From Candidatus Poribacteria bacterium (lineage in GTDB: Bacteria > Poribacteria > DTPJ01 > WJIO01), in assembly GCA_014730235.1 (NCBI GenBank), contig WJIO01000186.1:1-29776 (forward strand): a stretch of DNA of 29,776 nucleotides. Reading direction: 5' to 3'. A program made the translations under genes and the position numbers. The first letter of the stretch is position 1; the number at the start of each line of letters is the position of its first letter. Of this stretch, positions 2,906 through 29,709 are shown one piece after another. The notes beneath the pieces are model-generated. The model did not search any database. It was not told the DNA's origin and saw nothing but the letters and a program-made list of their open reading frames with translations.

Positions 2906-2936
2906 GTAATAACCTCTTAATCAAAATTATTATATA

Positions 2937-3536: not shown

Positions 3537-3570
3537 TATATACCTCCATCACAGATAAGAGATTTTCAAA

Positions 3571-4173
3571 CTATAAATAACCAAGAGATTTTAACCTTTG
3601 TTTAATTTTTTCTTCCTCTTCAGAATCATAAGCAAGAGATTCTGAAGCTGGGGGAATAAGTCCTGCCAATTCCAAATATCTTATGATTTTCTCGGCACTT
3701 TCTTCTACATTTTCTTTATCTGTGTCCACTATAATTGTCGGATTTTCTGGTTCTTCATACGGGTCTGATATACCAGTGAAGTTTTTTATTTCACCAGACA
3801 AGGCTTTTTTATACATACCCTTTACATCCCTCTCAATACATACTTCCACTGGACATCTTACAAAGACCTCAATGAAATTATCAATCCCGACTTTAATTTG
3901 TTCACGAACTTCACGATATGGGGAGACAAAAGCAGCAATAACAGCCACGCCATTTCTGGAAAGCAGTTTAGCTATGAATCCCATACGACTTATGTGGGTA
4001 TCCCTGTCTTTCTTACTGAATCCTAAGTCCTTGCTTAAGTGAGTCCGAACTTCATCACCATCCAGAGATTCCACGTTAAGGCCTCTGTTCCTTAGTTCTT
4101 TTTCAATTATTTCCGCAATAGTGGTCTTTCCTGAGCACGGAAGACCAGTAAACCATAGAGTAAATCCTGACAT
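3571..4173 (-). CDS. cysC: Adenylyl-sulfate (APS) kinase
   Basis: 200 aa. The P-loop is FTGLPCSGKTTIAEIIE. The motif LDGDEVRTHLSKDLGFSKKDRDTHISRMGFIAKLLSRNGV is characteristic of CysC. Confidence 0.9.
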   Translation of the reverse strand: MSGFTLWFTGLPCSGKTTIAEIIEKELRNRGLNVESLDGDEVRTHLSKDLGFSKKDRDTHISRMGFIAKLLSRNGVAVIAAFVSPYREVREQIKVGIDNFIEVFVRCPVEVCIERDVKGMYKKALSGEIKNFTGISDPYEEPENPTIIVDTDKENVEESAEKIIRYLELAGLIPPASESLAYDSEEEEKIKQRLKSLGYL

Positions 4174-4196
4174 AGTTATATCTCCAGTTGTTGTTA

Positions 4197-5594
4197 TTAA
4201 AAATCAATAACCTTTCCCTGCATATCATCAGGTATAGATATATTCATCAATTTCAAAATTGTAGGAGCGCAGTCCATAACATGGATATCAGTAATTTTAC
4301 CACTTACTTTGCTATTTGGTACGCTCATTATAAACATGCCGTATTGAGCGTGGTTGGCATCATCCGGACCTGTATCGTTTTCAAAGGTATGTATGGTTTT
4401 TAACCCCACACTACCAACCGAACGCCATGAAAGATCGCCAAAATATATTATAAGATCTGGCGGGATACCTTTACAGACTTTATATATATCCTGAGGTTTA
4501 AATACTTTCGTTCCTATGGGATTACCTTTGTCATCTCCCAGGTCTTTGAGCTTTTCTGTCAATTCATCCCTGATTTTTTCATAGTCCATCTGAGGAACAA
4601 TTCCCCTGGGTTCCCTATCTTTTACATTGAGAAAAACTCGGGCGTAATAGCCACCTTCACCCCATGCACGAGTGTTTTCCCAATCAATATTTTCACTAGC
4701 TAGACGGGTTACCTCATCAGGATATTCCTTTAATTTCAGATAACCTTCCTGGATCATCCATTCGTTTATACATATTCCGCCATCCATAGGCTTTACTCCA
4801 TGATCCGATACTACTATAACCGCGGTATCTTCTCCGGCAGTTTCAATGAGGTCACCAGCAATTTCATCGAGATATTCATAGTATTCTCTGGCTATGTCCT
4901 TATATTTTGTGGGTATATAATCCCTGTGGTTTTCGTCAATAAAGCGCCAGAGTCCATGATGAAGCCTATCAGGTCCCATCTCTACCATCATAAAGAAATC
5001 CCAATCACTTGTTGTCATAAGGTGTTTCGCGACTTTATGGCGTTTTTCTGTCATCTCGAATATTTCATTAACGATCTGAGCTTTGTCGTCAGTTCTGAAA
5101 TTTTCTACATCCAGCATATATCCATCAGCTATCCGTTCCACTTCCTGTTTTAATTCCGGAGGATATGTATATTCGCTTTCGGTGCTGGGAGTCAGGAAAG
5201 ATGTTACCATACATCCATTAAGGGGTTTTGGTGGGTAAGTTTGGGGAACTCCGATAATAATGGAGTTTTTGTCGTGTTTTGAAAGAATATCCCAAACTGT
5301 GTTTTCTTTTACCATAGTTGAGTTGGCGATGGACATTCCATCATATGAGTGATCAGGTCTATTTCTAAAACCATAGAAACCTAGAGTTCCGGGATCTTTG
5401 CTGGTCATCATAGACATCCATGCCGGGCATGTAATAGCGGGTATAGTGCTTTCGATTTCTCCATAAATTCCATTATCCATAAGCTTCTTCATATTTGGCA
5501 TATCATCGAGATATTTGTCAAAAACCAATTGAGGCGCGCCACAGTCCCAACCTATTACCAGAACTTTCTTTATTTTCTTTCTTCTTTTAAACAT
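4197..5594 (-). CDS. Alkaline-phosphatase-superfamily protein, type I phosphodiesterase / nucleotide pyrophosphatase-like, soluble. It sits between sat and cysC.
   Basis: 465 aa. The N-terminal core VLVIGWDCGAPQLV...TIPAITCPAWMSMMTS resembles the metal-binding and nucleophile region of the NPP/AlkP fold, and VVSDHG is the conserved DHG metal ligand. The start overlaps the sat stop as TAATG. No TM segment is present. Confidence 0.6.
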   Translation of the reverse strand: MFKRRKKIKKVLVIGWDCGAPQLVFDKYLDDMPNMKKLMDNGIYGEIESTIPAITCPAWMSMMTSKDPGTLGFYGFRNRPDHSYDGMSIANSTMVKENTVWDILSKHDKNSIIIGVPQTYPPKPLNGCMVTSFLTPSTESEYTYPPELKQEVERIADGYMLDVENFRTDDKAQIVNEIFEMTEKRHKVAKHLMTTSDWDFFMMVEMGPDRLHHGLWRFIDENHRDYIPTKYKDIAREYYEYLDEIAGDLIETAGEDTAVIVVSDHGVKPMDGGICINEWMIQEGYLKLKEYPDEVTRLASENIDWENTRAWGEGGYYARVFLNVKDREPRGIVPQMDYEKIRDELTEKLKDLGDDKGNPIGTKVFKPQDIYKVCKGIPPDLIIYFGDLSWRSVGSVGLKTIHTFENDTGPDDANHAQYGMFIMSVPNSKVSGKITDIHVMDCAPTILKLMNISIPDDMQGKVIDF

Positions 5595-6757
5595 TAAGCT
5601 ACCCCTCGGCTTGCCTTCATTAATATCTGAGCAACTTCAGGACGTGTAAATTCTTCCGGTAAGTCTTTACCTTCTGACAGCATTCCCCGTACTTTTGTTC
5701 CACTCAGAAAAACATGTGATTCTTTTCCATGAGGGCAGGTTTTCCCTGTAGCCATGCCGTCACATTCCTTACAGTAGAAGGCGTGTTCAAATTTTAGCGG
5801 TATAATACCTATTTCTTCAGGCTTAAACTCATCAAAAATTTTCTGTGCATCGTAAGTGCCATAATAATTAGCCACACCAGCATGATCTCTACCTACGATA
5901 AAGTGTGTGCATCCGTAATTTTTTCTTGCTATGGCATGGAGGATTGCCTCTTTTGGACCTGCGTATCTCATAGCTGCGGGAAATACCGACATTACTGTGC
6001 GGTTTTTGGGATAATATTTTTCCAGTATTATCCTGTAACATTCTATGCGTACATCGGCAGGAATATCATCTTTTTTTGTTGCCCCTACCAGGGGATGAAG
6101 CAAAAGACCATCCACAGTTTCCAGAGCGCATTTCTGGATATATTCATGAGCCCGGTGTATTGGATTGCGCGTCTGAAAAGCCACAACACTGCTCCAGCCT
6201 TTATAATGGAAAAGAAGCCTTGTTTCCTTTGGGTCAAGCAGCACGCCCTCTATCTCACCATGATCCGGACGGTTAATCATTACGACATTACCGGCCAAAA
6301 GCACATCACCCTTCTCATATAAAGCTGCAACTCCGGGATGGGCAATATCTGTCGTTCCATAAACGACTTGCGCTTCTTTTTCCCTGTCATAATCGTATTT
6401 CTCATCCAGATATAAGACACCCATCACCTCTCCATTTTGGTCACAAAGTGCTACATCGTTATCCAGGGCATATTTACTTGCATCGTCTTTACTTACAGCC
6501 AGAGTTATTGGGATAGTCCAAGGACAGCCGCTTGCCAGTCGGTTATTTTCAAGTACGCTATTATAATCTTTTTGACCCATAAAGCCTTCAAGAGGACTGA
6601 AAGCTCCTATGGAGATCATCTCCAGATCTGAGATTTCCCTCTTATTTAATGTAACTTTTTCCATACCCGGAATCCGTTCAATTAGATAATCCCGAACAGG
6701 CCCTTCACCAATACTGTTGATTAGCTTGCCGCCGTGCGGATCGATCAAATGCTTCAT
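5594..6757 (-). CDS. sat: Sulfate adenylyltransferase (ATP sulfurylase)
   Basis: 387 aa. It contains the diagnostic QTRNPIHRAHE and GRDHAG motifs and an N-terminal PUA-like domain. Confidence 0.9.
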   Translation of the reverse strand: MKHLIDPHGGKLINSIGEGPVRDYLIERIPGMEKVTLNKREISDLEMISIGAFSPLEGFMGQKDYNSVLENNRLASGCPWTIPITLAVSKDDASKYALDNDVALCDQNGEVMGVLYLDEKYDYDREKEAQVVYGTTDIAHPGVAALYEKGDVLLAGNVVMINRPDHGEIEGVLLDPKETRLLFHYKGWSSVVAFQTRNPIHRAHEYIQKCALETVDGLLLHPLVGATKKDDIPADVRIECYRIILEKYYPKNRTVMSVFPAAMRYAGPKEAILHAIARKNYGCTHFIVGRDHAGVANYYGTYDAQKIFDEFKPEEIGIIPLKFEHAFYCKECDGMATGKTCPHGKESHVFLSGTKVRGMLSEGKDLPEEFTRPEVAQILMKASRGVA

Positions 6758-6760
6758 CTA

Positions 6761-8656
6761 TTACCCCTTATGTTTTATACGAGTAAAATTTAAGACAGTG
6801 CCAATAACATTACTTCCGGAATTTTCTAATATCCCCTGGGTATCGTTTACATATTCTCTGTTAGTGGTATCTGCCTTTATCACAAGGATAGTAGCATCAA
6901 CTTTTGAGCCAATAGCTGCTGGGATAGCAGACGATGCCAGAGATTGGGAATCAAAAATTACTATATCGAAATTATTTGTTATATCTTCTAATATGCGATC
7001 AAAATGGGAAGATGAAAAATATGAAGAATTAGTATTGTATTCACTTCTACCTGATGTCATAACGCTTAATCCATCTGTTTCTGTTAAAGTAATTGCATCA
7101 TCCCAATCTGAATTTCCCTCCAGAATATCAAATAATCCCTGTTTCTGGTCTAATTCCATAATCCTGTCTACATCCGGTGTTTTATTATCAGAATCAATCA
7201 GTAATACCTTAAGATCTGACAAAGCAAAGCACAATGCCAGATTTGCAGAAACTGAGGTTTTACCTTCACCGTCCAGAGAACTTGTGACAAGTAAAGTTAA
7301 ACCTTTTGACTTATTCTTTAATATTTCAATTTTTGCCGTTGTTTCTAAATATAGCATATCATAGGAGTTTTTGTAAAGATCATTGAGCTTTCCGGGGGGT
7401 ATTTTATTGATAATTGTTTCTTTTATTTCATGGTGGTTTCTTAGCCTGGGGATAACTCCCAGAACAGGCAGATTCAAAGATTCAGCTAGTGATTTTGGGT
7501 CATGAATTGTTTTATCTGTAAATATTTTAAAGAAGGCAAGAGTTAATCCTAAAAATCCACCGGCCAGAATACTTGCGGCAAATATTATTTTTCTTTTAGG
7601 TTTGCTGGGATATAAAGGTTCTGCCGCTTCTTCTATGATCTCAGTGGTGTTTCGCTGCATTATATGTTGGGCCTTTAACTCTTCGTGCTTTGTTACAAGA
7701 AGACTGTAAACCTGTTGATTAAAAACCACCTCAGCCGCCAATTCAGTCAGACCAAATTGCTTATTATATTTCTCAAAGGCCTTTTCCTCTTCTTCTTTAA
7801 GCCTTTCTCTGGTTTCCTTCAATTGGGCTTTTAAATTTACGACTTTTGGATCACTAGGAGGGTAACTTTTTTTTAACACATCCAGTTCTATTTCCAATTC
7901 CATTACAGCCGATCTGAGCTTTGCAATGGTCTGGGGTACTTCCGGAATCATAAACTTAGAACTATCGCCGCCTATTTGATTTCCCGCACCTATTAATAAA
8001 GGACTAAAAGCAGTTGGGATACCCTCACCTGTTTCATTTTGGTACAGCCGGTTTCTTGAATCTACCAGTTCACCCTTTACTTCCTTAAGTTTATTTTCCA
8101 TTTGTGTGATTAATTCATTCCAGGCTTTTTGTTGAGATTTATTGGCAAAATCTATATACTCAATGGCAACCTGGTCTGTAATTTCTTTTGCTTCCTTGGG
8201 TGTATCCCCTGCCGCTGATATATCTATTAAATTTGTCCTTCCTCTTTGTCTAACTTCAAGGTTTTCCTGAAATTTATTTATAATCATCCGCATGTCCATA
8301 TCGGTGTTTTTTGGCTTCTTATCCAGCCCGAGCTCCTTTATTACCTTTTCTGATATAGTTCTGCTTTTGATTATTTCCACTTCTGTGGTAACATCCCCGG
8401 CCTGTCCGATAGGTAAAAACGCCCCAAGGGCAGCAGCCAACCCACCTCCGGATTGTGTTGGAATCTTTATGACCGCTTTGGATGTATATTGTCTTGGTGT
8501 AACCAGGAGAAATATCAGGGTTGCACTTACAACAATCCCAAAAGGTATAATGATTAACCACTTTCTCCTTAACAATTCGTTCCAATATTCACTTAATCGG
8601 ATTTCCTTTTCTCCAGTATATTCAGGCATTTGACCTGATGGAGATGGTGATTTCAT
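6761..8656 (-). CDS. wzc: Wzc/ExoP-like polysaccharide co-polymerase: an N-terminal Wzz chain-length domain fused to a C-terminal BY-kinase/CapB-like P-loop ATPase. It lacks the C-terminal tyrosine cluster.
   Basis: 631 aa. It has an N-terminal TM segment, a long coiled-coil periplasmic region, then a second TM segment. Walker A is LLVTSSLDGEGKTSVSANLA and Walker A' is VLLIDSD. The C-terminus ...VLNFTRIKHKG has no Tyr-rich tail. Confidence 0.8.
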   Translation of the reverse strand: MKSPSPSGQMPEYTGEKEIRLSEYWNELLRRKWLIIIPFGIVVSATLIFLLVTPRQYTSKAVIKIPTQSGGGLAAALGAFLPIGQAGDVTTEVEIIKSRTISEKVIKELGLDKKPKNTDMDMRMIINKFQENLEVRQRGRTNLIDISAAGDTPKEAKEITDQVAIEYIDFANKSQQKAWNELITQMENKLKEVKGELVDSRNRLYQNETGEGIPTAFSPLLIGAGNQIGGDSSKFMIPEVPQTIAKLRSAVMELEIELDVLKKSYPPSDPKVVNLKAQLKETRERLKEEEEKAFEKYNKQFGLTELAAEVVFNQQVYSLLVTKHEELKAQHIMQRNTTEIIEEAAEPLYPSKPKRKIIFAASILAGGFLGLTLAFFKIFTDKTIHDPKSLAESLNLPVLGVIPRLRNHHEIKETIINKIPPGKLNDLYKNSYDMLYLETTAKIEILKNKSKGLTLLVTSSLDGEGKTSVSANLALCFALSDLKVLLIDSDNKTPDVDRIMELDQKQGLFDILEGNSDWDDAITLTETDGLSVMTSGRSEYNTNSSYFSSSHFDRILEDITNNFDIVIFDSQSLASSAIPAAIGSKVDATILVIKADTTNREYVNDTQGILENSGSNVIGTVLNFTRIKHKG

Positions 8657-15105: not shown

Positions 15106-16461
15106 ATGCTATTGATTGGATGTCTTACTGTGTTTGTAAGTTCTATGACGGGCAGTATATCGGATGAAAACATATTTGAATTGGGCATGTGTACCCACTT
15201 CAGTCAGGGAAAAGGGATCGTTGAATCAAATATTTACAGCATGAAAATGGCCGGAATTAGCTCTATCCGGGATGAATCCACATGGAAAGATGTGGAAAGG
15301 ACAAAAGACGTTCTTGAAATATCCGAGAGGATTGATAGATATATTGACCATGCCAATAAAGAGGGCATTGGGGTTATGATGATCCTTGATTATTCCAACC
15401 CTTTTTATGATGATGGTGACAGGCCAAAATCTCCAGAAGCTGTGGAAGGTTTTTGTCGATATTCAGAACATATAGTTAAACATTTTGGGGATAAAATCAA
15501 ATGGTATGAAATCTGGAATGAATGGGATATTCCCATTGGACTTCCACCAAAGCACCAGGAAAAGAACGGTGAACGAAACAGGGGTAAAGCGGAGGATTAT
15601 TTTAACCTTTTAAAAGCTGTATATCCAAGAATCAAGTCTGCCAATCCCGATGCAATAGTTCTGGGCGGATGTCCCACACCCGGAGCCGTCAGAAACGGAT
15701 GGCTTGAAAAGATTATGAAGTTGGGTGCAGTGGATTACTGCGATGCCATATCCATCCATACATATAACTACAGCGCAAAGGGCTTTGACAGGACGCCGGA
15801 AGCGTGGCAGGCATGGATGCTGGAAGTTCAGGCCATGCTACGTAAATATAATAACGATAATGATCCTGATTTTTACGTTACTGAAATGGGCTGGCCGACT
15901 CATGTGGACGAGAGGGGAACATCACCTGAGCTTTCCGCGTCATATTTGGCAAGACTTTATCTCCTGGCCCGGACAATGCCATCTTTTGAGGGCTTATGGT
16001 GGTATGATTTCCAGGATGATGGCTGGAAAGCTGAATATAACGAAAACAACTTTGGAATCATACGTCCTGATTTGACTCCCAAACCGGCTTATTATGTAAC
16101 ATGGGATATATCAGAACTGGTTAAACATGGTGAATATCTAGGCAGAATGAAGACTTCCGACGAGAATCTCTGGTTGCTGCAATTCAAGCTTGATGGTGAT
16201 AATATATGGGCTGTATGGTCAGGGGACGACCAGGAGCGACAGGTTATTTTTGAGACTAAAGATACGGGGATAGATCTGTCGGTTTTGCAAACAGGCCATA
16301 AGCATATGGATATGAAATGGGGCCACAGGGATTGGGTAGATAATAGAGGTCAGCCTTTGATGAAATCCCGGATGTCACTAACTGTTGGACATCGACCTTA
16401 TATTCTGAAAGGTGGATTGGGTAATATATCTGTAGTAGATATTATCCCGCGACCGAGATGA
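15106..16461 (+). CDS. Clan GH-A (TIM-barrel) glycoside hydrolase, GH5/GH39-like, with an N-terminal signal-like segment
   Basis: 451 aa. Strand-4 acid/base motif is WYEIWNEWD, and the strand-7 nucleophile context is YVTEMGWPT. The N-terminus is MLLIGCLTVFVSS. The family cannot be fixed by eye. Confidence 0.55.
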   Translation: MLLIGCLTVFVSSMTGSISDENIFELGMCTHFSQGKGIVESNIYSMKMAGISSIRDESTWKDVERTKDVLEISERIDRYIDHANKEGIGVMMILDYSNPFYDDGDRPKSPEAVEGFCRYSEHIVKHFGDKIKWYEIWNEWDIPIGLPPKHQEKNGERNRGKAEDYFNLLKAVYPRIKSANPDAIVLGGCPTPGAVRNGWLEKIMKLGAVDYCDAISIHTYNYSAKGFDRTPEAWQAWMLEVQAMLRKYNNDNDPDFYVTEMGWPTHVDERGTSPELSASYLARLYLLARTMPSFEGLWWYDFQDDGWKAEYNENNFGIIRPDLTPKPAYYVTWDISELVKHGEYLGRMKTSDENLWLLQFKLDGDNIWAVWSGDDQERQVIFETKDTGIDLSVLQTGHKHMDMKWGHRDWVDNRGQPLMKSRMSLTVGHRPYILKGGLGNISVVDIIPRPR

Positions 16462-17106: not shown

Positions 17107-19245
17107 TTATCTCTCTATGGCTTTCATTGCAGCCTGGAAGTGTTCCATATTAATCTTTATCTGTGTATAATCTTTCTCCTGTTCATCTTTGCTTTTCTGG
17201 ATAAATTCCCGGATGGCTATCATTGCCGCCCGTCTGCATACAAATTCTATATCAGCACCTACCCGGTCATCTGTCATTTTAGCCAACTCATCATAATTAA
17301 TGTCATCAGCCAGTGGTTTTTCCCTTGTATGAACTTTGAATATCTCCAAACGGGTTTTTTCGTCAGGTTTTGGCATCTCCATAACCAGATCGAGACGTCC
17401 AGGTCTTAAGAGGGCTTCATCAATGAGATCACGACGGTTAGTGGCTGCAAGCACCACAACACCCCGAAGTTCCTCGATGCCGTCCATCTCAGTTAAAAGC
17501 TGGCTTATTACACGTTCTGAGACATGGGAATCGGATGCTCCGGAACGCGGTGGAGCGATGGCGTCCAGTTCATCCAGAAATAATACGCAGGGGCTGGATT
17601 GTCTTGCTTTCTGGAAAACCTCTCTTATTCCTTTTTCAGATTCGCCGACCCACTTTGAGATTAACTCAGGTCCTTTGATTGATATGAAATTTGCTTGACT
17701 CTCGGTGGCAACTGCCTTGGCCAGCAGTGTTTTTCCTGTTCCCGGCGCGCCGTGAATTAAAACACCTTTTGTTGGTGATATGTTGGCATATTTGAATGCA
17801 TCCGCGTATTTCATAGGCCATTCGACAGCTTCCTGGAGTTCCTGCTTGATCTCCTCAAGGCCACCCACATCCTCCCAATGCACATTGGGTACTTCGGTAA
17901 ATACTTCCCTGATGCCCGATGGTTCTATTTCGTTGAGGGCATCCATGAAATTATCCATGGTAACGTTAAGATCATTCAGAATTTCATAAGGGATGGAATC
18001 TATATCAAAATCTATTTTAGGGATAATTGTTCTAAGGGCTGTCATAGCTGCTTCCCGACTTAAAGCCTCTAAATCTGCTCCTGTATAACCATGAGTTATC
18101 TCAGCCATTTTATCCAGGTCAATATCATCAAACAAAGGCATTCCACGTGTGTGAATTTCCAGGATTTGTAATCTAGCCGGGGCATCGGGTATACCAATAA
18201 CGATCTCCCGGTCAAAGCGTCCTGGGCGGCGCAGGGCTGGATCAATCATGTTAGGTAGATTTGTTGCTCCAACTACTACAATCTGTCCCCGGTCTTTCAG
18301 ACCGTCCAGAAGGGCCAAAAGCTGTGCTACAACGCGTTTTTCTACATCTCCTACTACTTTTTCCCGCTTTGGAGCTATGGAATCTATTTCATCCAGAAAT
18401 ATAATGCTGGGTGCTTTTTGCTTTGCCTGTTCAAATATTTCCCTTAGCTGTCTTTCACTCTCACCATAAAACTTATGTATTACCTCTGGGCCACTTATAG
18501 AAAAGAAAGCTGCATCAGTTTCGTTAGCCACAGCCCGGGCTAGCAGTGTTTTACCACATCCGGGAGGTCCATGAAGCAAAACACCCTTGGGCGGCTCAAT
18601 CCCTAATTTCTGGAACAACTGGGGATGCCTTAAAGGTAATTCTATCATCTCCCGAACTCTTTGTATGGCTTTATCCAAACCACCAATGTCTTCATATGCA
18701 ATACCAGCTTTATTTTGTCCTCCTTCTCTTTGACCTTCTATATTAATTCTTGTATCAGGATGAATAAGGACTATATCATCAGGGGATGTTTTTGACACAA
18801 TAAATTCCTGGAACCTGGAACCAAAGAGGGTGGCTCTGACTACATCACCGGATACTACAGGTAAATCATTAAGTAGTTTGCCCACATATTTTGTGTCCCG
18901 TTGTTGTGAAAAACGGGTTTTCCCGGAAGCCTGAGTGAGATATATTAGCTTTGCTGGTTGGGCTGAAACTGGAGACAGTTTGACCTTTTCACCGATTCCT
19001 GTATCGGCATTACGACGGGTAAGGCCGTCAATCTGAATGATTTCTTTACCTCGATCATCAGGATACGCAGGCATTACCTTAGCGACTGTCATTCGTTTAC
19101 CCCGAATACTGATAATATCCCCTACAGAAACGTCAAGTTTTTTCATATCTTCGGGATCCATCCGGGCAAGACCTTTACCTGCATCCCGATTTAATCCTTC
19201 TGATACTTTAAGATTAATCGTATTTGGCTCTGTTCCTGCACCCAT
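17107..19245 (-). CDS. Cdc48/VAT/p97-type double-ring AAA+ ATPase (N-domain + D1 + D2), last gene of the gvp-linked operon
   Basis: 712 aa. The Cdc48-N domain is [41 protein letters not shown]1 Walker A is [20 protein letters not shown] with DEID Walker B. D2 Walker A is [20 protein letters not shown] with DELD Walker B. Both SRH regions are present. It is TAAATG-coupled to the upstream 189-aa ORF. The SD is AGGAG. Confidence 0.9.
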
Positions 19246-19815
19246 TTAATGATTCTCCTTTAGATTTTTTACCGATTTATAGATCTTGATGTCGTCAACC
19301 AATTTATCAGTCACTTTATGAAGAGCTCCCATAAACAAAAGGCCAGTTTCACCATCCTTCAGAGTCGAGTCAATCCTACAGGCTATATATTCATCCCGGC
19401 GTTTCATCAGATCGTCGTATTTGTTTGTTGAACCAACTACTCCCATGTTCTTAAGTCTTTCCCTTTCCTCTAGCAGTAGCTCTGATGCTTCTGTTCCAAC
19501 TATTGATGCTCCTTTTTGGATTAACTCCAGCAGTAGCTTATAATTTCTGTTGCCATCTTCTGCAAGGGCCTGGACTATTTTAAGTTCCTGATTACATACA
19601 GGTAGACTGTCCTGATAGATTTTTGCTTTTTTGTAATTAATAGGTAAATTGAGCAGTGTATTCCTGATTTCTGTCCAGAAATTTTCAACAGCCTTTATAT
19701 GTTCTTCCCATTTAGATTCACCATATCTAGCTGTGTATTGTTTTCTGGCTTCGGATAAATGGTTTCCCAGGTCTTCAGGTGTATGAACAATAGGTATATA
19801 AAGCAATTCTCGCAT
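19246..19815 (-). CDS. Hypothetical 189-aa protein between the last gvpF/L and cdc48-like. It is translationally coupled on both sides, with no family recognised.
   Basis: The start is 2 nt after the gvpF/L stop and is preceded by GGAG. The stop abuts the cdc48 ATG. The protein is predicted alpha-helical and soluble (MRELLYIPIVHTPEDLGNHLSEARKQYTARYGESKWEEHIKAVENFWTEI...). Confidence 0.5.
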   Translation of the reverse strand: MRELLYIPIVHTPEDLGNHLSEARKQYTARYGESKWEEHIKAVENFWTEIRNTLLNLPINYKKAKIYQDSLPVCNQELKIVQALAEDGNRNYKLLLELIQKGASIVGTEASELLLEERERLKNMGVVGSTNKYDDLMKRRDEYIACRIDSTLKDGETGLLFMGALHKVTDKLVDDIKIYKSVKNLKENH

Positions 19816-20542: not shown

Positions 20543-21379
20543 TTATTCTTCTTTAAAAACATTGAATTCAGGACAGAAATTATAACACGGCCAAGGACCA
20601 CTTAACTCGAATAATATAAGGCTTGGTTTATGTCTAAGGGCAAGTTTATCCAAGTTTTTTTTGAAATTATCAAAAGATTTCTTATCAATCAAAAAAGCAG
20701 AATTAAGTATCATATCCATATTTTTTCCCGTTGCATTTCTGCCAAGAAGTTTATTTCTACATCCTGCTATGCACCAGGATGATATAGTCTTATATATTGA
20801 ATTAGAAAGATTTTTCAGGTAATTGGTGCGGAATTTGCTGATTAAGCTCTCCCGCTTTTTTTTCAATAGATATGCTTTGCCCGGTGGCATATGGGCAATA
20901 CGTTTATCCAGATCCACAATTTCTTTGCTTGATTTAGCTATTTCCTCTGAACCAGCGTCATTTTCAGCATATACCTTTATTCCCCATTCCTCTTTTCCAT
21001 CAACAACGTCAAAATAATCATTAAATTCCTTGAATCCCTTAACCAGTATATCAATGATTTTCTTGCTATCAGAATAGATAGTGCCAAAACGCATAGGGAT
21101 AATACTGTGATTCTCCATTGCTGTTCTTATTATTTTTTCATGGGTTCTTACTCTTGGAGTTAACCACTCAATGTTCTGAAGGGATTTTTCCAGTGCGTCT
21201 TCGTTATATTTATCTCTGGAAACTGAACTTACCAGAGCACCGAGGTTTTGGTGAGATAAAAAAAAGGTTTTATTTTGCCTATCTATTCCTGGATTTGATT
21301 CTATATCCGGTATACCCCTGAAAATACAATAAAGGTAAAAATTATTATTCTGGTCTAATCCTGATTCTTCTGCTTCCAC
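20543..21379 (-). CDS. gvpL: GvpL/GvpF-family gas vesicle protein (paralogue 3)
   Basis: 278 aa. Contains FYLYCIFRG and the C-terminal ELSGPWPCYNFCPE signature. Confidence 0.8.
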   Translation of the reverse strand: MEAEESGLDQNNNFYLYCIFRGIPDIESNPGIDRQNKTFFLSHQNLGALVSSVSRDKYNEDALEKSLQNIEWLTPRVRTHEKIIRTAMENHSIIPMRFGTIYSDSKKIIDILVKGFKEFNDYFDVVDGKEEWGIKVYAENDAGSEEIAKSSKEIVDLDKRIAHMPPGKAYLLKKKRESLISKFRTNYLKNLSNSIYKTISSWCIAGCRNKLLGRNATGKNMDMILNSAFLIDKKSFDNFKKNLDKLALRHKPSLILFELSGPWPCYNFCPEFNVFKEE

Positions 21380-21888
21380 AATTTAATCTCCACTATACCA
21401 TTTCTGTTTGAGTATTTAGTTTTTTCTTCATCAACAGGAGCGGAAAGTAGTATTTCCTTGTAATATTTTCGCTCTTTTTTTTCACCTGATAGTATAAGTA
21501 TATCTCCTTTAATTTCGTATTTTATTTCAGTTTCTGATACTCCAGGCATTTCAGCGATTACCAGTATATAATCACCTTCATCAAAAATATCCACCATAGG
21601 TTCCCGAATTTCATCAACTATCGGTCCTTGTTTTTTTTCTTTAACATTACCAAATTGTTGAACAGTAGCTTTTCCACCAGTTCCAAATTTCACAGAAACG
21701 CCGTATACGGCTTTCAAGTCTTTATCATCACCGATTACCCCTTCTTTTTTTATACTTTCGGATTTTTCGGCTAATTCACTTGCCAGATCGATCAGGGAAC
21801 CAAGACCTTTAAACAAACCTCCTAATCCTATATCAATATTTATGTTGCCTTTGACGTTATCCTTTTTATCATCTTTACCCATTACCAA
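21355..21888 (-). CDS. gvpH: Hsp20/alpha-crystallin-domain protein (GvpH-like)
   Basis: 177 aa. The ACD-like core is VDIFDEGDYILVIAEMPGVSETEIKYEIKGDILILSGEKK...NGIVEIKLWK. The N-terminal region is glycine/lysine-rich. It overlaps the downstream gvpF/L by 25 nt. The SD is GGAGG. Confidence 0.7.
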   Translation of the reverse strand: MVMGKDDKKDNVKGNINIDIGLGGLFKGLGSLIDLASELAEKSESIKKEGVIGDDKDLKAVYGVSVKFGTGGKATVQQFGNVKEKKQGPIVDEIREPMVDIFDEGDYILVIAEMPGVSETEIKYEIKGDILILSGEKKERKYYKEILLSAPVDEEKTKYSNRNGIVEIKLWKQKNQD

Positions 21889-23296: not shown

Positions 23297-23920
23297 TTAA
23301 TCCGATGACAGATCAATTAACTCCAGTTCTAATTTTTTTCTACCAAAAACCAATGCTTCTTTTACGGTAGGCATGAGTAAATCAATATTTCTACCATTGT
23401 TTTTTTTCATGGCTGATCCTGTATCACATGCAAAAAAGTACCTGTTAATTTCCGGAGCATACAGGACAGAACCATATGGAATAACACCGGGATCAACAGC
23501 AGCAACACCCATACCTGCCGGAATGAGGTTAGATGTCAATCCATCGTTAAATGGAACGCAGCTATCTTTGGGATCATAGGCAGTAACATTAAAATAACCT
23601 AAAGATTTCCGTTTTCCCTTTTTGGATAAAGTAGATATAGCTGCACGATATGCCTTTATTTCACCTTTAAGGAGTGATGATTTTATAGCGTATTCATTTA
23701 TCATCTCTTTTAGTCTTGTATGTTCCTGAGTCATTTGTGTTTGGTAATCATGGCTAACCCGCATGTATGTAAACAGGCATGATAATCCCATTGCGGTAAA
23801 AATAGCAAATGACAATACACCAAAGTAGACAAACAATTTAGCACCTTGTTTCTTAAATATATCTTTTATAAGAGAATAAGCCCTACCTGTATAAGAAGAA
23901 TTACAGGCTAACGTTTCCAT
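23297..23920 (-). CDS. Membrane-anchored 3D-domain protein (MltA/YorM-like double-psi beta-barrel, probable peptidoglycan-binding or lytic domain) embedded in the gvp operon
   Basis: 207 aa. One N-terminal TM segment (LFVYFGVLSFAIFTAMGLSCLF) and a coiled linker precede the 3D domain TAYDPKDSCVPFNDGLTSN...GVAAVDPGVIPYGSVLY...FACDTGSAMKKNNGRNIDLLMPT, which carries the conserved Asp residues. Confidence 0.6.
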   Translation of the reverse strand: METLACNSSYTGRAYSLIKDIFKKQGAKLFVYFGVLSFAIFTAMGLSCLFTYMRVSHDYQTQMTQEHTRLKEMINEYAIKSSLLKGEIKAYRAAISTLSKKGKRKSLGYFNVTAYDPKDSCVPFNDGLTSNLIPAGMGVAAVDPGVIPYGSVLYAPEINRYFFACDTGSAMKKNNGRNIDLLMPTVKEALVFGRKKLELELIDLSSD

Positions 23921-24166: not shown

Positions 24167-24952
24167 CTACCTTTCGAGATGCAATTCCAGTCTGTCAACA
24201 AAACTGAATGGAGGCCAGGGACCGTCAAGTTTGAGGGAATACTCATTTCCCATATTTTCGCCTAGTCTATCAATGGCCTTTTCCAGATCAGAACGCATGT
24301 CTTTTTCAATTAGCAAAGTTGCATTAGTTATTGTTGAATCATTGTTTATTTCTTCAACCCGGGCTTCTCCCGGAGGAAGATGGGTTAAAATATCATTGGT
24401 TATCTGTTCTCTGGTTTTTTCCATTCTCTTGTGGAAATAAGTACCAAAATCAATAATTTCCTTACGTCCCAGGGATTTACCCTCGCCCATGTATTTATCC
24501 CGAATGGATCTGAGTTTATCATCCCTGTCAATGAAATACTTAAACACATCATCAACATTCCATTCAACCTTTAATCCCATTTCAACTTTGTTCTTAAGTC
24601 TTTCAAGCTCCTGTCGAATAGTTTGGTAACTTTTACGCAGAGCAATATTAACCTCACCTGCATCTCTAGCTATCTGACCGAATCTGGCAGGAATTGTGGT
24701 AAAAAGCTCTGATGCCTTGCGTATCACTTCATGGTATGGAGCCAGATTTTTCCTGAGAAGTTTAATGGAATCAACACGAGGATAATCACTTACCAGAGCA
24801 CCAATATCTTCATAATGAATGCTATGGACAACTTTATTATCCAGACCTATAGGACCGAAGTTACTTTCCTGATCTGAAAGAATAACAGCGTAAAACAATT
24901 TTCCATAATGGGAGCTTCCGTTATTTACTTTTCTTGTAACTCGCTTTCTCAT
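24167..24952 (-). CDS. gvpF: GvpL/GvpF-family gas vesicle protein (paralogue 2)
   Basis: 261 aa. The C-terminal signature is [13 protein letters not shown]. It has a 4-nt ATGA overlap with the upstream gene. Confidence 0.8.
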
Positions 24953-25986
24953 CGGATCAATAACCTCTCTGCAATAAAAACTTTTTCAACTTCATCTCTT
25001 GAGAACGAAAAAACAGCATTTTTTCCATCTTCAAGAGAACTGCTATAACTATGACAATATGACTCTAAAATTTTATAGGCTTCGTCTATTTCTTTAAAAA
25101 GCTTATATGATTCCTTGTCTCCATCCGTTTTGTCAGGATGGTATTTCAACGCAAGTCTTCGATAGGATGCCTTAATATCATCCAGATGTGCTTTTTCCGG
25201 GAGTTCCAGCCTTCTACGGGCTTTATCAATTAATTCATAATTGCCTTTTTTGAATTCAAGTGGTGCAAAACTATAGGGAGGAATTGGGCCAATATATTTA
25301 AAACTGAGGTAAGATTCATTTTCATTACCAAGTTCCTCCATAGCCTTATCGAATTCTGCTTCATCCTGTCTATTGATGAGATAGCTCCTGTTAAAAATAA
25401 TTGAGTCATCGGCTGATCTACCTTCTGATGAATCAATAGATACATTGGATAATTTGTCGTGAATAGAATCAATAATCTGGCGTTTTAGTTTTTCTGCTGA
25501 CTGGAACAGTAGTTTACCAAGCTGAATTTTATCATTAATGTCAATAGATTTCACAGCCTCTTTAAGCCAGTTTTCATCTTTACTTATATTCTGTAAAACT
25601 GTATCCAGATCCCAGAAAAGCTGAACTGCAAATTCAGCTTTATTGCGAAGGTTATTCAGTGCCCATTTAATATGTATGTAGGAATTGGCCATGAATTCCT
25701 CAACCTGTTCTTCCTGATCCACCATAATTCCAAATCTAAGCGGGAGTATAGTGAGGTTTTGGAATATATTTATATTTATCTGTTGGTAAGATGCAAGAAG
25801 GACTTTAAGTTCAGCTTCATGCATTCCGGGCTGTTCAGCAATAGCAGGATCTATTTTTCTGGTGATAGTTGTAAGATCTTTATAATTTATGCTATGTATC
25901 GTCTCAGGAATGGAAATATATTCATTTTCAAATTTGGTAGTTTCAACGATACAATGAAGCAAGAATGTATTTAATTTTTCTGTCAT
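24949..25986 (-). CDS. GvpL/GvpF-family protein fused to a C-terminal DnaJ J-domain (paralogue 1)
   Basis: 345 aa. The GvpF/L core ends at the signature [16 protein letters not shown] canonical J-domain follows: [59 protein letters not shown], with the HPD tripeptide present. Confidence 0.8.
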
Positions 25987-26434: not shown

Positions 26435-26719
26435 TTACTGTTTTAAGATTATTAGTTTTCTATTCCCAATTGTATTTGTAAACCTGACATTTACAACATC
26501 ATTGGGTTTTAGATCCATAAATGACAGCAAGTTATCTGGAATAACAAGTCTATTTGATGAATCCAAACGGGCTAATCCTCTTATAATACCTATAGACCTT
26601 GAAATATTACCATTCAGTTTATGATGACGATTATTAAAACACCTTATATACCTGAAATGTTTTATTTTGCCCGATGTTTTTATATTTCGTCTTGTTTTAA
26701 GTTTAATAATATTTCGCAT
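26435..26719 (-). CDS. Small protein with a C-terminal AbrB/MazE/SpoVT-like swapped-hairpin DNA-binding domain. The start codon is uncertain.
   Basis: The C-terminal 50 aa SIGIIRGLARLDSSNRLVIPDNLLSFMDLKPNDVVNVRFTNTIGNRKLIILKQ aligns by eye to the AbrB N-domain (GIVRKVDELGRVVIPIELRRTLGIAEKDALEIYVDDEKIILKK). The basic N-terminal 40 aa may be a mis-called extension. There are 3 nt between the upstream ORF stop and its start. Confidence 0.45.
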   Translation of the reverse strand: MRNIIKLKTRRNIKTSGKIKHFRYIRCFNNRHHKLNGNISRSIGIIRGLARLDSSNRLVIPDNLLSFMDLKPNDVVNVRFTNTIGNRKLIILKQ

Positions 26720-26722
26720 AGC

Positions 26723-27046
26723 TTAATATTTTAAAATAACCTCAGCCTTTTTTTCTGATTCATTATCTTTTGCGTTTTGATTTTGTTTATTTATTTTTTC
26801 TCGAACGCCCAGTCTCTCCATAAGTTCATTTTCTTCCTCATCAATTTCTTCCAGGCGTTTTGAGATCCTGTCTATTCTTTTTTCCCAGTTATTTTTTTCC
26901 TTGTTTAGTCTCTGTCTTTCACGACCAAGACCAGCCAGTTCGTTGTAAATATCATATTCATCATAGTGATTCCGCATCCGCAAAGCAGTTTTAATGCGTT
27001 TTGTGGTATTAGGAATATCTCTTATTCCTCTTATTCTTCTTTCCAT
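26723..27046 (-). CDS. Hypothetical 107-aa charged coiled-coil protein downstream of gvpN
   Basis: The ORF has operon context only. Its sequence is MERRIRGIRDIPNTTKRIKTALRMRNHYDEYDIYNELAGLGRERQRLNKEKNNWEKRIDRISKRLEEIDEEENELMERLG... I recognise no family. Confidence 0.4.
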   Translation of the reverse strand: MERRIRGIRDIPNTTKRIKTALRMRNHYDEYDIYNELAGLGRERQRLNKEKNNWEKRIDRISKRLEEIDEEENELMERLGVREKINKQNQNAKDNESEKKAEVILKY

Positions 27047-27171: not shown

Positions 27172-28053
27172 TTATCCAATTATATTTTCAATTGCTTTCT
27201 TTACCTGACCACTGGTATCTGAACCTTTACATATAACATCCAGACATGTTTCAATGAAAACCCTATCATCAGTTTTCACTTTGACTTCCTGCTTATTAAC
27301 AATATCGGCAATCATGATTGATGCTCTGATAGTGGGGTCAAAACTTATATCCTGGTTTTCCCTTATATGCCTGACAAGTTCCACTATTTTATTTGATTCT
27401 TTTTCAGGCATACCTGATTTTGCCGATGTAATAGCAGCTTCAGTTTGGGCATCATAACATCCCAGGTTAATGGTAATCATTCTATCCAGTAAAGCGCTCT
27501 GAGGAGTATAAACCCCCGCATATTCATCAGGATTACTGGTGAATATAGCCCGGAATTCCGAATGAATATTGATGTAACTTTCACCGTATCTGCTTTCCGG
27601 TAATACCAGGAGTCTTTCTTCCAAAGCCGACAAAAGAACATTGTTAGCTTCTGCCCTAGAACGGGAAAATTCATCATAAACGAGTGTATATCCATTTTTG
27701 CATGCTGTGGTTAGTCTTTGATCAACCCAGACATTGGATACATTTTCCTCAGTTTTTACAACAGAATGAACAAAGTTGTCCACCAGACGTTTTGAAACAA
27801 TACCCTTATCATTACCCAGTAGATCTGAAGAACCAAATTCTTCATCGCCATATATAATCATCACCGGGCGACCAATTACACCAGCCAGGTGCATAGCTAA
27901 AGTGGTTTTACCCGTCCCTGCAGGGCCGCTAAGATGGACAGGGTAACCAGCTTTTAGATATGCCAAACAGCGCCGACATATACTCTTTATTAACGGAGTA
28001 ACAACGAAATCCTTTCCCGGTTCAAGACGAAGAACAGTCGCCTGTTGTGCCAT
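27172..28053 (-). CDS. gvpN: GvpN (MoxR/CbbQ/NirQ-type AAA+ ATPase of gas vesicle clusters)
   Basis: 293 aa. Walker A is VHLSGPAGTGKTTLAMHLAG and Walker B is LVYDEFSRS. It follows the gvpC-like gene. Confidence 0.9.
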   Translation of the reverse strand: MAQQATVLRLEPGKDFVVTPLIKSICRRCLAYLKAGYPVHLSGPAGTGKTTLAMHLAGVIGRPVMIIYGDEEFGSSDLLGNDKGIVSKRLVDNFVHSVVKTEENVSNVWVDQRLTTACKNGYTLVYDEFSRSRAEANNVLLSALEERLLVLPESRYGESYINIHSEFRAIFTSNPDEYAGVYTPQSALLDRMITINLGCYDAQTEAAITSAKSGMPEKESNKIVELVRHIRENQDISFDPTIRASIMIADIVNKQEVKVKTDDRVFIETCLDVICKGSDTSGQVKKAIENIIG

Positions 28054-28081: not shown

Positions 28082-29242
28082 TTAACTCTTTGGATAATAA
28101 AGATTATCAATTTTTTCGACTTTATTTTCATCAACTAAAGGTTTTATAACAGATATAAGGCCTCTCCAATCAACACCCATTTCATTTCCAATATCAACCA
28201 GCTTAATGCCTTCAGGATGTTTACCAATCATTTCCAGAACCTGATCTTCTGTGGAAATATTTTCTTCCTCTTCTTTTTCAGGTGAAGCTTCTTCAGAAGT
28301 CGGTTCTTCGACTTCATCCTGCGGGGTTTCAGGAGAAGGTTCCTCATCCTCATATTCTTCCTCTTCCGATTCAGTTTTTGAAGGTGGTTCTTCAACTTCA
28401 TCATCTTCGGAGGAATCTTCCTGATCTAAAGCCTCTTCGATAACGGTAGTTGTTTCCGTCGTTTCTACCACAGAGGAAAACAATTCTATCCATATATCCC
28501 TTGCTTCTTTTCTGTCAGAAGCTATGCTATTTAGCATTTCATTTATGGCTTTGCTTCGGGCTTCTTCATCAGCAGAAACCTTTTCTCTCAGATTCTTGGA
28601 CATTTCCTGAATATCAGATCTGACACCTTTCATGAATGAATCAACCTCATCTATGAGGCTTTTGGCAGCTTCTTTTCGGGCTTTCTCATCTGAGGCCATC
28701 TTTTCCTGTAAGGCCCTGGATGTCTCTGCCATTTCCGATTTCATATCATCCATAAAGGATTTTACCTCATCCCTGAGCTGATTAACTGCATCGCTTCTTT
28801 GTTTTCTATCGGAAGCAATTTTTTCTTCCAGGGATTTGGACATTTGCTGTAGATCTGATTTTATACTTTCTTTGAAGTTTTTAACTTCGTCCATCAACTG
28901 TTTTGTTGCCTCACTTCGGGCAGCTTTATCGCTGGCCATTTTATCCTGAAGTTCTTTTGACATATCCTGAAGGTCATTTCTGACTTCATCCAGGAATACC
29001 TTAACGTTATCCATAAGCTCTTTTGAAGCCTTCATACGACTTGCTTTATCTTCGGATATCTTATCAGCCAGAGCTTTGGACATATCCTGACGCTCTAATT
29101 GGAAACGTTCTATGAGGTTATGAGTATCAGATTTCATCTCACTGACTTTGACGTGACGATCCTCGGTGGAGGCCCTACGGTTTTCAGCAGATGCTTTTAT
29201 ATCCTCTACCAGATTCCGCATTCCATTACTCAATTCACCCAT
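28082..29242 (-). CDS. gvpC: GvpC-like repetitive gas-vesicle surface (scaffold) protein candidate: about 6 tandem 40-41-aa amphipathic repeats, an acidic E/D/S/P-rich linker and a ~55-aa C-terminal globular tail
   Basis: 386 aa. Repeats such as DMSKELQDKMASDKAARSEATKQLMDEVKNFKESIKSDLQ, QMSKSLEEKIASDRKQRSDAVNQLRDEVKSFMDDMKSEMAE and TSRALQEKMASDEKARKEAAKSLIDEVDSFMKGVRSDIQE have the same period. Its position between gvpA and gvpN matches the canonical gvpA-gvpC-gvpN order. Confidence 0.6.
   Translation of the reverse strand: MGELSNGMRNLVEDIKASAENRRASTEDRHVKVSEMKSDTHNLIERFQLERQDMSKALADKISEDKASRMKASKELMDNVKVFLDEVRNDLQDMSKELQDKMASDKAARSEATKQLMDEVKNFKESIKSDLQQMSKSLEEKIASDRKQRSDAVNQLRDEVKSFMDDMKSEMAETSRALQEKMASDEKARKEAAKSLIDEVDSFMKGVRSDIQEMSKNLREKVSADEEARSKAINEMLNSIASDRKEARDIWIELFSSVVETTETTTVIEEALDQEDSSEDDEVEEPPSKTESEEEEYEDEEPSPETPQDEVEEPTSEEASPEKEEEENISTEDQVLEMIGKHPEGIKLVDIGNEMGVDWRGLISVIKPLVDENKVEKIDNLYYPKS
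28460..29215. repeat. Intragenic tandem DNA repeats of ~120-123 bp encoding the 40-41-aa GvpC-like repeats
   Basis: Periodicity is seen at the protein level, and at the DNA level as recurring ...GACATnTCCTG...TTTnAnnTCATC... blocks. Confidence 0.65.
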
Positions 29243-29392
29243 GAAAGCAACCTCCTATTATAAAATATTATAAAAAAACACATATTCAGAAAATTATTTA
29301 AAAGGCCAATTATTTATCCGAATATATAGTCAAATTTTAATTTATTAAACCGTTTTAGCTGATTGCTGAATCAGCTTAATGCTTTACTATTA

Positions 29393-29413
29393 AAAATCCC
29401 TCGTTTCGGGATA
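29393..29413 (-). terminator. Weak hairpin plus U-tract ~80 nt downstream of gvpA on the minus-strand transcript. Candidate attenuator between gvpA and gvpC-like.
   Basis: On the minus strand: AUCCC-GAAACGA-GGGAU followed by UUUUUAAU. A second 7-bp hairpin CTTCCGG...CCGGAAG lies just upstream, at 29421-29447 on the plus strand. Confidence 0.3.
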
Positions 29414-29490: not shown

Positions 29491-29709
29491 TTATGCAGGA
29501 ACAGCGGCGGTAGCGGTTAGACCAACGGCTTCTGCATATTTCAGGTATGTGTCAACTGAGGCAACTACGACGCGAGCTTCAACAGCCAGTATTTCGATAC
29601 CGACCAATGATACTCTTGCCCAAGCATCTACCACAATACCTTTGTCAAGAATGCGATCTACAACTTCTGCCAAACTACTTGAATCCATTGTCTTCTGTAC
29701 TGAAGCCAT
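29491..29709 (-). CDS. gvpA: GvpA, major gas vesicle structural protein
   Basis: 72 aa. [52 protein letters not shown] is near-identical to the canonical GvpA core. A perfect SD GGAGG (rc of 29719-29723) lies 9 nt upstream of the ATG. Confidence 0.95.

Follow-up and report, generated by a model that had tools for sequence, protein, structure and literature searches.

The gas-vesicle gene cluster of Candidatus Poribacteria bacterium (GenBank assembly GCA_014730235.1, contig WJIO01000186.1, positions 1 to 29,776; this stretch of 29,776 nucleotides (nt) is referred to below as the window) carries between gvpA and gvpN a gene, here called gene X, for an acidic repeat protein of 386 amino acids (aa). 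We read its product as a GvpC-type protein of the outer vesicle surface, a stiffener that would bind the ribs of the shell, and put the probability of this reading at about 0.6; that X is a dedicated gas-vesicle protein of one kind or another is highly probable. Sequence comparison places X outside both known GvpC families. We would describe the family to which it belongs as a third GvpC-like class, bacterial and widely distributed, with a winged-helix (wH) tail, or "wH-tailed GvpC". Gene context, architecture, predicted fold, repeat arithmetic and family distribution are the observations on which this proposal is built.

GvpC is the gas-vesicle protein that tunes mechanical strength, and it is a handle for acoustic reporter genes and for vesicle surface display. 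Vesicles that have lost it are weaker and buckle more. To our knowledge, many bacterial gvp clusters are thought to be without it. Pfam models only two GvpC sequence classes, the cyanobacterial PF01304 with a 33-aa repeat and the haloarchaeal PF05465 with a 32-aa repeat.

The X product (44 kDa; isoelectric point (pI) 4.5, from composition) is encoded on the minus strand in the order gvpA-X-gvpN, with gvpN starting 28 nt past the X stop codon; the position that an earlier note on this DNA had described is thus as stated. The coordinates of X, its parts and its neighbours are collected in Table 1. The 248-nt spacer between gvpA and X holds a terminator-like hairpin, which may, as a putative element, reduce read-through from gvpA into X. 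These three genes belong to a complete gvp cluster that occupies the minus strand of the window between about 17.1 and 29.7 kb and comprises gvpA, gvpN, four gvpF/L genes, gvpG, gvpO, two gvpJ/M-like genes, gvpK and an Hsp20/GvpH-like gene. After gvpN come two small open reading frames (ORFs; 107 and 94 aa, no Pfam match) and a GvpF/L protein fused to a J-domain, followed by a second GvpF/L, GvpG, a 3D-domain protein, GvpO, a GvpA-like protein, GvpK and a second GvpA-like protein; the cluster closes with the Hsp20-like (Hsp20/GvpH-like) protein, two more GvpF/L proteins, a 189-aa ORF without match and a CDC48-like double AAA+ ATPase.

Relatives of X occupy the same place in other genomes. A search of 5.8 billion clustered proteins returned 37 full-length homologues with E values between 1e-79 and 1e-24 and identities of 24-45%, every one of them from metagenomes or metagenome-assembled genomes (MAGs); the named ones are called "hypothetical protein", except for one "gas vesicle protein" from the Joint Genome Institute (JGI). 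The family plan is a helical head (MGxLSxAMxxLVxDIxSSAExR...), a variable repeat helix that ends in ..D....(I/L)W, a variable linker and the wH domain, and two alignments show that X has the head motif, repeat helix, linker and wH signature; its gene also has the gvpA/gvpN adjacency. A scan of one genome per species found nine loci with X relatives, in Omnitrophica GWA2_41_15 (L001), five Acidobacteriota/Bryobacterales MAGs, an Aerophobetes MAG, an unclassified MAG and Polaribacter filamentus ATCC 700397 (L009), the last a cultured, gas-vacuolate member of the Bacteroidota. The locus closest to the window is that of Omnitrophica GWA2_41_15, with identities of 88% for GvpA, 70% for GvpN and 78% for the CDC48-like protein. 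The X homologue lies upstream of gvpN in all nine loci, directly so in seven (in Polaribacter a small Cys-rich ORF stands between them), and adjoins gvpA in every case where that flank is present; in L003 the order is X-gvpA-gvpA-gvpN. The Polaribacter homologue (L009 9998-11272) has 424 aa. A more distant clade, whose proteins start MSNVDAMRRLKEDII..., has members between gvpA and gvpN in L017, L018 and L019, with two tandem X paralogues in L017.

In total, relatives adjoin gvpA, upstream of gvpN, in 12 further loci, namely those with usable flanks; P0119, P0168, P0103 and P0151, on contigs shorter than 2.4 kb and without usable gene context, stand outside this count. The X family is found at the same gvp position in at least five bacterial phyla and at least 13 loci. 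The earlier note had held that absence of the gene from the gvp loci of close relatives would speak against its proposal; an X gene was found in all related loci. Among the ORFs of the window and 11 loci (L001-L009, L017, L018) there was no match to a GvpC profile of the PF01304 or PF05465 type, and the wH domain occurs once in each of these clusters. No match to X turned up when 72,556 plasmids were searched by tblastn. A literature search found no paper that brings gas vesicles and GvpC together with Polaribacter, or gas vesicles and gvpN together with a winged helix; what it found on omnitrophs were metagenome surveys.

The X protein has three parts: an amphipathic repeat helix, a disordered linker, and a wH domain formed by the last 57 residues. 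In an autocorrelation of the protein (mean BLOSUM62 score), lags 40, 80 and 120 score 1.71, 1.52 and 1.16, and none of 200 shuffles exceeded 0.18. The repeat has an exact period of 40 aa, rather than the 40-41 aa first proposed, and the "about 6" amphipathic helical repeats of that proposal resolve into five clear units (residues 54-253) preceded by one degenerate unit. The repeat consensus is MSK.L.eK.asD..aRs.A.k.L.DeVksF....rsd.qe, and pairwise identity among the five units is 25-53% at the protein level. The last of them is itself degenerate; it closes with ASDRKEARDIW (D243, W251), a motif that marks the end of the helix and is invariant in the family. Ahead of the repeats lies a helical head that is more conserved than they are (majority-residue fraction 0.59 over 26 family members) and whose motif recurs in most wH-tailed proteins. 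The hydrophobic positions of the 40-aa unit are confined to an arc of 140 degrees, and the hydrophobic moment over 210 residues peaks at 99 degrees per residue, or 3.636 residues per turn (40 residues per 11 turns), with a value of 1.09 against a shuffle maximum of 0.57. AlphaFold2, given an alignment of 26 sequences, predicts a single uninterrupted helix for residues 2-254 at a predicted local distance difference test score (pLDDT) of about 90.

At the DNA level the X repeats are old. Compared in register, the five 120-nt units show 43-59% identity and have no exact common run longer than 10 nt, and Tandem Repeats Finder called no tandem repeat in the X DNA. The expectation that these DNA repeats make the gene prone to copy-number change therefore fails for X itself, whose units are too diverged for slippage. 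Repeat number does change among close Omnitrophota relatives: in a cluster of 90% identity, a member of 411 aa differs from those of 352 aa by a single exact duplication of 59 aa, and this one-unit difference between near-identical proteins indicates that repeat number is evolutionarily labile, as in GvpC. In Omnitrophica GWA2_41_15 the repeat array of the X homologue is interrupted by a run of N (L001 4860-4980), either an assembly gap from near-identical repeats or a masked stretch.

The repeat length is variable across the family, and 33 aa appears to be its base. Many members (P0005, P0008, P0009, P0017, P0019, P0020, P0023) have a period of 33 aa; window X and P0002 have 40 aa, and others 51, 59, 73 (33+40) or 92 aa. 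Aligned to a 33-aa profile, the 40-aa unit is 33 residues plus a 7-residue insert, and 51 is 33+18. The helical region can be as short as about 115 residues or as long as about 340, and in all relatives tested, of whatever repeat length or phylum, the hydrophobic stripe stays in phase at 3.62-3.68 residues per turn, which is what a helix lying on a surface needs.

The linker of X (76 residues: 28 Glu, 6 Asp, 7 Pro and 17 Ser/Thr) is 45% D+E and 3% K+R, with a pI of 4.05 and pLDDT below 50, and so is acidic and disordered as first described. Its length and chemistry vary among relatives, some of which have basic or Pro/Ala-rich versions; an acidic linker was accordingly dropped as a family hallmark. 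The globular tail that had also been noticed, with its fold then unrecognised, is predicted to be a winged helix. In the full-length AlphaFold2 model it is compact, with topology H-H-H-E-E and a pLDDT of about 93; a model of the domain alone (pLDDT 85, core above 90) matches winged-helix domains in the Protein Data Bank (PDB), and Foldseek gave template modelling (TM) scores of 0.75-0.81 to IdeR, TtgV, MexR/MarR proteins and a viral Zalpha domain; Zalpha domains rank among its best structural neighbours. The wH domain is the best-conserved part of the family (majority fraction 0.76), with invariant residues G-I-x-L-x-x-I-G, G-V-x-W-R-x-L and Y-(Y)-P. It shares its predicted fold with the winged-helix domains of MarR/ArsR/Rrf2/IclR regulators, Zalpha and RPA32C; unlike those regulators, the X-family domain hangs on a 250-residue repeat helix, sits in gvp clusters and carries its own signature GI(K/R)LV(D/E)IGNELGVDWR...KIDNLYYPK.

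Sequence searches with the tail gave little beyond the family itself. The window tail matched no Pfam family at E<=10; the HTH_24, MarR and RPA_C matches of relatives' tails were all sub-threshold, with no wH family reaching its threshold, and a search of PDB sequences with the wH profile yielded nothing beyond proteasome and Piwi matches at chance level. In 1.84 billion proteins this profile recovered 405 representatives at E<=1e-3, of which 132 reach E<=1e-10; the domain is C-terminal in all but a few of the matches listed and, in the sequences inspected, is mostly preceded by a helical region that is usually Arg-rich or repeat-bearing. A first metagenome alignment (A3) was too diverse for any pattern. 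The domain has a net charge of -2 in the window; among 39 members the charge runs from -4 to +6 with a mean of -1.5, most being acidic or neutral, and Polaribacter, at +6, is basic. This mean argues for a protein-binding role as the more probable, ahead of a classical DNA-binding one. Three unusual proteins carry the domain in other settings. P0094 (L020 9001-10368), a divergent 455-aa protein with three wH copies, lies without gvp context beside Tricorn-like and CHAT genes, and so the domain is not strictly restricted to gvp clusters; P0151 (L016, 315 aa) has two N-terminal wH copies and a hydrophobic stretch, and P0175 has a single copy behind a hydrophobic, probably membrane-spanning N-terminal region.

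The architecture of X has features in common with both known GvpC classes. Cyanobacterial GvpC (Anabaena flos-aquae, PF01304) is likewise encoded downstream of gvpA and built of all-helical tandem repeats; its 33-aa period is exact in many X-family members, and 51-aa (33+18) variants occur in both groups. It is without linker or globular tail, whereas window X has both, as well as a 40-aa repeat. The haloarchaeal class is closer in layout. In Halobacterium salinarum the gene order gvpA-gvpC-gvpN, seen on haloarchaeal plasmids, is the same, the protein is of similar size (382 vs 386 aa) and both are acidic overall. In each, an N-terminal array of helical repeats (32-40 aa) leads through an extended acidic linker to a compact domain of about 55 aa at the C-terminus. 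The 32-40-aa repeats, extended linker and compact C-terminal domain of haloarchaeal GvpC are described in PMC9372576 and PMC10903477. A 40-aa repeat and a linker with a compact C-terminal domain are thus already known from haloarchaeal GvpC, and neither sets X apart in the way the earlier note had supposed. The haloarchaeal tail is a zinc finger, as the same note had said, of Ros/MucR type (CxxC...HxxxH), and matches the Ros/MucR regulator family PF05443 at 28.3 bits (threshold 25.4), so that it too has a fold of DNA-binding type; the X tail has no Cys, one His and no Cys/His zinc motif. The hosts of the X family are bacterial, unlike those of haloarchaeal GvpC. The description of X as a GvpC analogue is upheld by its context, by the absence of canonical GvpC from the 12 clusters, by the predicted helix, by the 33-aa base and by the haloarchaeal-like layout; the differences from GvpC that accompanied the description do not all survive.

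From these likenesses we infer binding to GvpA, strengthening of the shell and a partner for the wH domain. The amphipathic helix of about 250 residues would lie along the GvpA ribs, with the hydrophobic stripe and the conserved Arg of each repeat packed on GvpA helix alpha2, and this packing would tie adjacent GvpA subunits together and raise collapse pressure. In the GvpA of the window this helix is V52-V62, and in comparison with Anabaena GvpA it appears conserved, with D53 for Anabaena E52 and with E59 kept as E60. The Anabaena sequence used agrees with the residue numbers of PMC9994262, in which the alpha2 contact region for GvpC is V51-V61 with E52 and E59. In the same study a Leu/Phe/Arg cluster on one helix face of cyanobacterial GvpC is the GvpA-binding face, and the 33-aa repeat was inferred to span four GvpA subunits (49.5 A vs 4 x 12.1-12.7 A; PMC9994262). 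By that arithmetic the 33-aa repeat of the relatives, like that of cyanobacterial GvpC, would span four GvpA, and one 40-aa repeat (about 60 A) about five (5 x 12.1-12.7 A). On this model a vesicle would carry roughly one molecule of X, or of its Polaribacter homologue, per 25-35 GvpA. The disordered acidic linker would hold the wH domain off the shell, where it would mediate protein-protein contacts by analogy with the zinc-finger domain of haloarchaeal GvpC, which serves in self-association and in binding of GvpN, O, F, H, I and L (PMC9372576; PMC10903477). Candidate partners would be X itself, GvpN, GvpO, GvpF/L or other proteins of the cluster; GvpN is suggested by the conserved X-gvpN adjacency together with the binding of haloarchaeal GvpN to the GvpC C-terminal domain (PMC9372576).

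Several results weigh against assigning X to GvpC, the first being that it has no detectable sequence homology to either known class. X and five relatives gave no match to PF01304 even at E<=1 (gathering score 21 bits), with Anabaena GvpC as positive control at E 1.1e-75 and five repeats; PF05465, too, was absent from the match list of X, and its control, H. salinarum GvpC (NC_001869 22804-23949), gave E 3.4e-74 and seven repeats. Pfam and NCBIfam scans of X and its relatives found no Gvp family, only sub-threshold helical-repeat matches. Bit scores stayed below 10 when a hidden Markov model built from Anabaena-type 33-aa repeats was run against the X family, and likewise in the opposite direction. 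With hhalign, in which repeat profiles were doubled so that any phase could align, the X-family repeats met the cyanobacterial GvpC repeats at E 0.86, which is noise beside a reversed control of 0.39; the cyanobacterial profile is a narrow one, resting on at least 7 close cyanobacterial matches to Anabaena GvpC. Aligned to haloarchaeal GvpC, the full X family scored E 0.12 across 12 columns, also noise. The only match between the X family and cyanobacterial GvpC covers 15 columns, LIERFQLERQDMSKA to the N-terminal LMAKIRQEHQSIAEK, at a probability of 9.7%; each of these stretches stands directly ahead of repeat 1. Nor are the finer features of the GvpC repeat reproduced. The one-sidedness of conservation has P 0.10 in the X-family 33-aa repeat against P 0.0015 in cyanobacterial GvpC repeats, and a one-sided conserved face as in GvpC was dropped as a feature of X on that value. 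The best register between the two repeats, at a noise-level score, aligns LS...R in both, and the L/F/R contact motif is there mirrored only in part (L1, R8). Beyond this, an 11/3 amphipathic helix is also typical of lipid-surface binders and some coiled coils, X has weak matches to apolipoproteins A-I and A-IV, and the wH fold is typical of DNA-binding regulators and leaves room for a nucleic-acid role.

It is important to note that the cyanobacterial and haloarchaeal GvpC profiles do not detect one another either (E 0.97). Since the accepted classes are mutually undetected, "GvpC" is a functional and architectural class and not a single sequence family; the failed profile tests place X outside PF01304 and PF05465 and do not argue against a GvpC-like function.

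Other functions for X have been weighed against rib binding. The first, which we hold to be rather unlikely, is that X organises or tethers vesicles, with the helix or the wH tail on a vesicle and the other end on further vesicles, the nucleoid or a cell structure, and so controls their clustering or positioning. Layouts with a long disordered spacer and a globular end domain are typical of tethers, the wH domain is conserved above all other parts, two unrelated GvpC-type classes end in nucleic-acid-binding folds (Ros/MucR in Halobacterium, wH in X), Zalpha is among the top structural neighbours and the Polaribacter domain is basic. The mostly acidic or neutral charge of the domain and the unconserved chemistry of the linker speak against a tether, which would moreover be compatible with rib binding and so is not exclusive of it. 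A related speculation, which we likewise hold to be unlikely, is that two unrelated GvpC-type proteins have independently gained a nucleic-acid-binding fold past a flexible linker and that the tail has a second job. This might be tethering of vesicles to the nucleoid or assembly-coupled feedback, in which free protein would regulate gvp expression or recruit AAA+ machines (GvpN, CDC48-like) for shell remodelling.

It is improbable, in our judgement, that X is an assembly chaperone or scaffold, absent from mature vesicles, whose helix keeps free GvpA or GvpJ/M-like proteins soluble and whose wH domain hands them over to GvpN or another AAA+ protein. The tight coupling to gvpN (28 nt apart in the window, adjacent in seven loci) would suit such a protein, as would the presence in these clusters of a CDC48-like AAA+ protein, a J-domain-fused GvpF/L and an Hsp20-like protein, and the many accessory Gvps bound by the haloarchaeal GvpC C-terminal domain; repeat arithmetic, with its 33-aa base and integer-like multiples of the GvpA spacing, suits an assembled lattice better than monomers, and so does the lability of repeat number. 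We are more doubtful still of X as a transcriptional regulator of gvp genes, a coiled-coil dimer with C-terminal winged-helix DNA-binding domains. The sub-threshold HTH_24 and MarR matches of relatives hint in that direction, against which no wH Pfam family is reached at threshold, the domain is acidic, the helix at 3.64 residues per turn is not a heptad coiled coil, and variable repeat number with a disordered linker of 25-80 residues would be unusual. The site between the two best-conserved structural and assembly genes, with a strong ribosome-binding site, suits an abundant structural protein. Finally, X is most unlikely to be an apolipoprotein- or phasin-like stress or lipid-surface protein in the cluster by chance: the long 11/3 amphipathic helix and one-face surface binding of exchangeable apolipoproteins (ApoA-I/A-IV, ApoLp-III) resemble the predicted X helix, and there are matches to Pfam Apolipoprotein (E 7.7e-6) and ApoLp-III (E 3.8e-4) and to PDB profiles of apolipoproteins A-IV and A-I (E 0.003-0.04), but the PF01442 score of 26.2 bits is far below the gathering threshold of 90, so that the significant homology to an unrelated family that the earlier note had named as decisive against it is not found, the common 11/3 periodicity explains the similarity, and X differs in its bacterial host, its wH tail and a gvp context kept across at least 13 loci and 5 phyla, the divergent triple-wH P0094 alone having been found outside gvp clusters.

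Table 1. Coordinates of gene X, its parts and other features of the window
Feature	Coordinates	Strand	Basis
Gene X, candidate GvpC-type protein	28082..29242	(-)	ORF list; 386 aa + stop, ATG start
Conserved N-terminal helical head, residues 1-53 (MGELSNGMRNLVEDIKASAENRR...SEMKSDTHNLIERFQLERQD)	29084..29242	(-)	majority-residue fraction, 26 family members
Five 40-aa amphipathic repeats, residues 54-93, 94-133, 134-173, 174-213, 214-253	28484..29083	(-)	autocorrelation, register, AlphaFold2
Disordered acidic linker, residues 254-329	28256..28483	(-)	pLDDT <50, composition
C-terminal winged-helix domain (predicted), residues 330-386, H1-H2-H3-beta hairpin	28085..28255	(-)	AlphaFold2 + Foldseek
Shine-Dalgarno AGGAGG, 8 nt 5' of X ATG	29251..29256	(-)	direct sequence reading
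Terminator-like hairpin + T-run (ATCCCGAAACGAGGGAT TTTTAATAG)	29388..29412	(-)	consensus scan + sequence; pattern match only
gvpA, shell protein	29491..29709	(-)	PF00741, E 8e-15
gvpN, AAA+ ATPase	27172..28053	(-)	PF07728, E 4e-18
107-aa charged helical ORF after gvpN	26723-27046	(-)	no family match
94-aa ORF after gvpN	26435-26719	(-)	C-terminal part AbrB/MazE-like by eye
GvpF/L fused to C-terminal DnaJ J-domain	24949-25986	(-)	PF06386 + PF00226
207-aa 3D-domain protein between gvpG and gvpO	23297-23920	(-)	PF06725 (cell-wall-binding/lytic-transglycosylase-type proteins)
Hsp20-like protein	21355-21888	(-)	best NCBIfam match "archaeal Hsp20"
189-aa ORF	19246-19815	(-)	no family match
CDC48-like double AAA+ ATPase with CDC48 N-domains	17107-19245	(-)	family match

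Other genes of the cluster also recur in the related loci. The CDC48-like ATPase, the 189-aa ORF and the Hsp20-like gene, a trio that ends the gvp cluster of the window, are found again in L001, L002, L004, L007 and L008; the ATPase occurs also in L005, L006 and L009, and the Hsp20-like gene also in L009. No description of a gas-vesicle role for this trio was found in the gas-vesicle literature consulted. The GvpF/L-J-domain fusion is kept in L001, where it also has 345 aa, and tblastn reaches the J-domain in L003, L004, L009 and L017; this arrangement of domains suggests recruitment of Hsp70 in vesicle assembly. The 107-aa ORF is kept after gvpN in L001, L002, L004, L006, L007 and L008. An L019 ORF in the position of the 94-aa ORF has a faint MazE_antitoxin match, and the 94-aa ORF probably begins downstream of its annotated start. 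None of the related gvp loci gave a tblastn match to the 3D-domain protein, which therefore looks like an insertion specific to the window.

Small Cys-rich proteins with repeated CxxC(x)G motifs lie by the X homologue or gvpN in L001 (7601-7993), L009 (11357-11668) and L019 (10359-10712 and 12496-12882); those of L001 and L009 were judged by eye, the two of L019 have weak matches to PF00684 (DnaJ_CXXCXGXG), and none was identified in the window. Polaribacter filamentus (L009 9365-9955) and L019 (8150-8785) each have, between gvpA and the X homologue, a helical ORF of about 200 aa without family match, which could be a second shell-associated protein.

The remainder of the window is bacterial in character, with LolA, a Wzz-type chain-length determinant, and sulfate-activation and polysaccharide genes. 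A minus-strand block at 330-8656 combines a Wzz/tyrosine-kinase-like chain-length determinant, a flippase, a DegT aminotransferase and a hexapeptide acyltransferase with ATP sulfurylase, adenosine 5'-phosphosulfate (APS) kinase and a type I phosphodiesterase, a gene content that suggests a sulfated exopolysaccharide. At 15106-16461 on the plus strand, between cinA and a LigT-like 2'-5' RNA ligase, is a 451-aa ORF with no Pfam or NCBIfam match.

If X and its relatives do bind the shell, GvpC-type reinforcement would reach the Omnitrophota, Acidobacteriota, Aerophobetes, Poribacteria and Bacteroidota. The family would then provide a natural series of 33-, 40-, 51- and 59-aa repeats that bears on the relation of repeat length to the GvpA lattice, and its modular linker and folded domain would be a natural site of display or recruitment. 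Polaribacter filamentus ATCC 700397 is a culturable host of the family, which is thereby directly accessible to testing.

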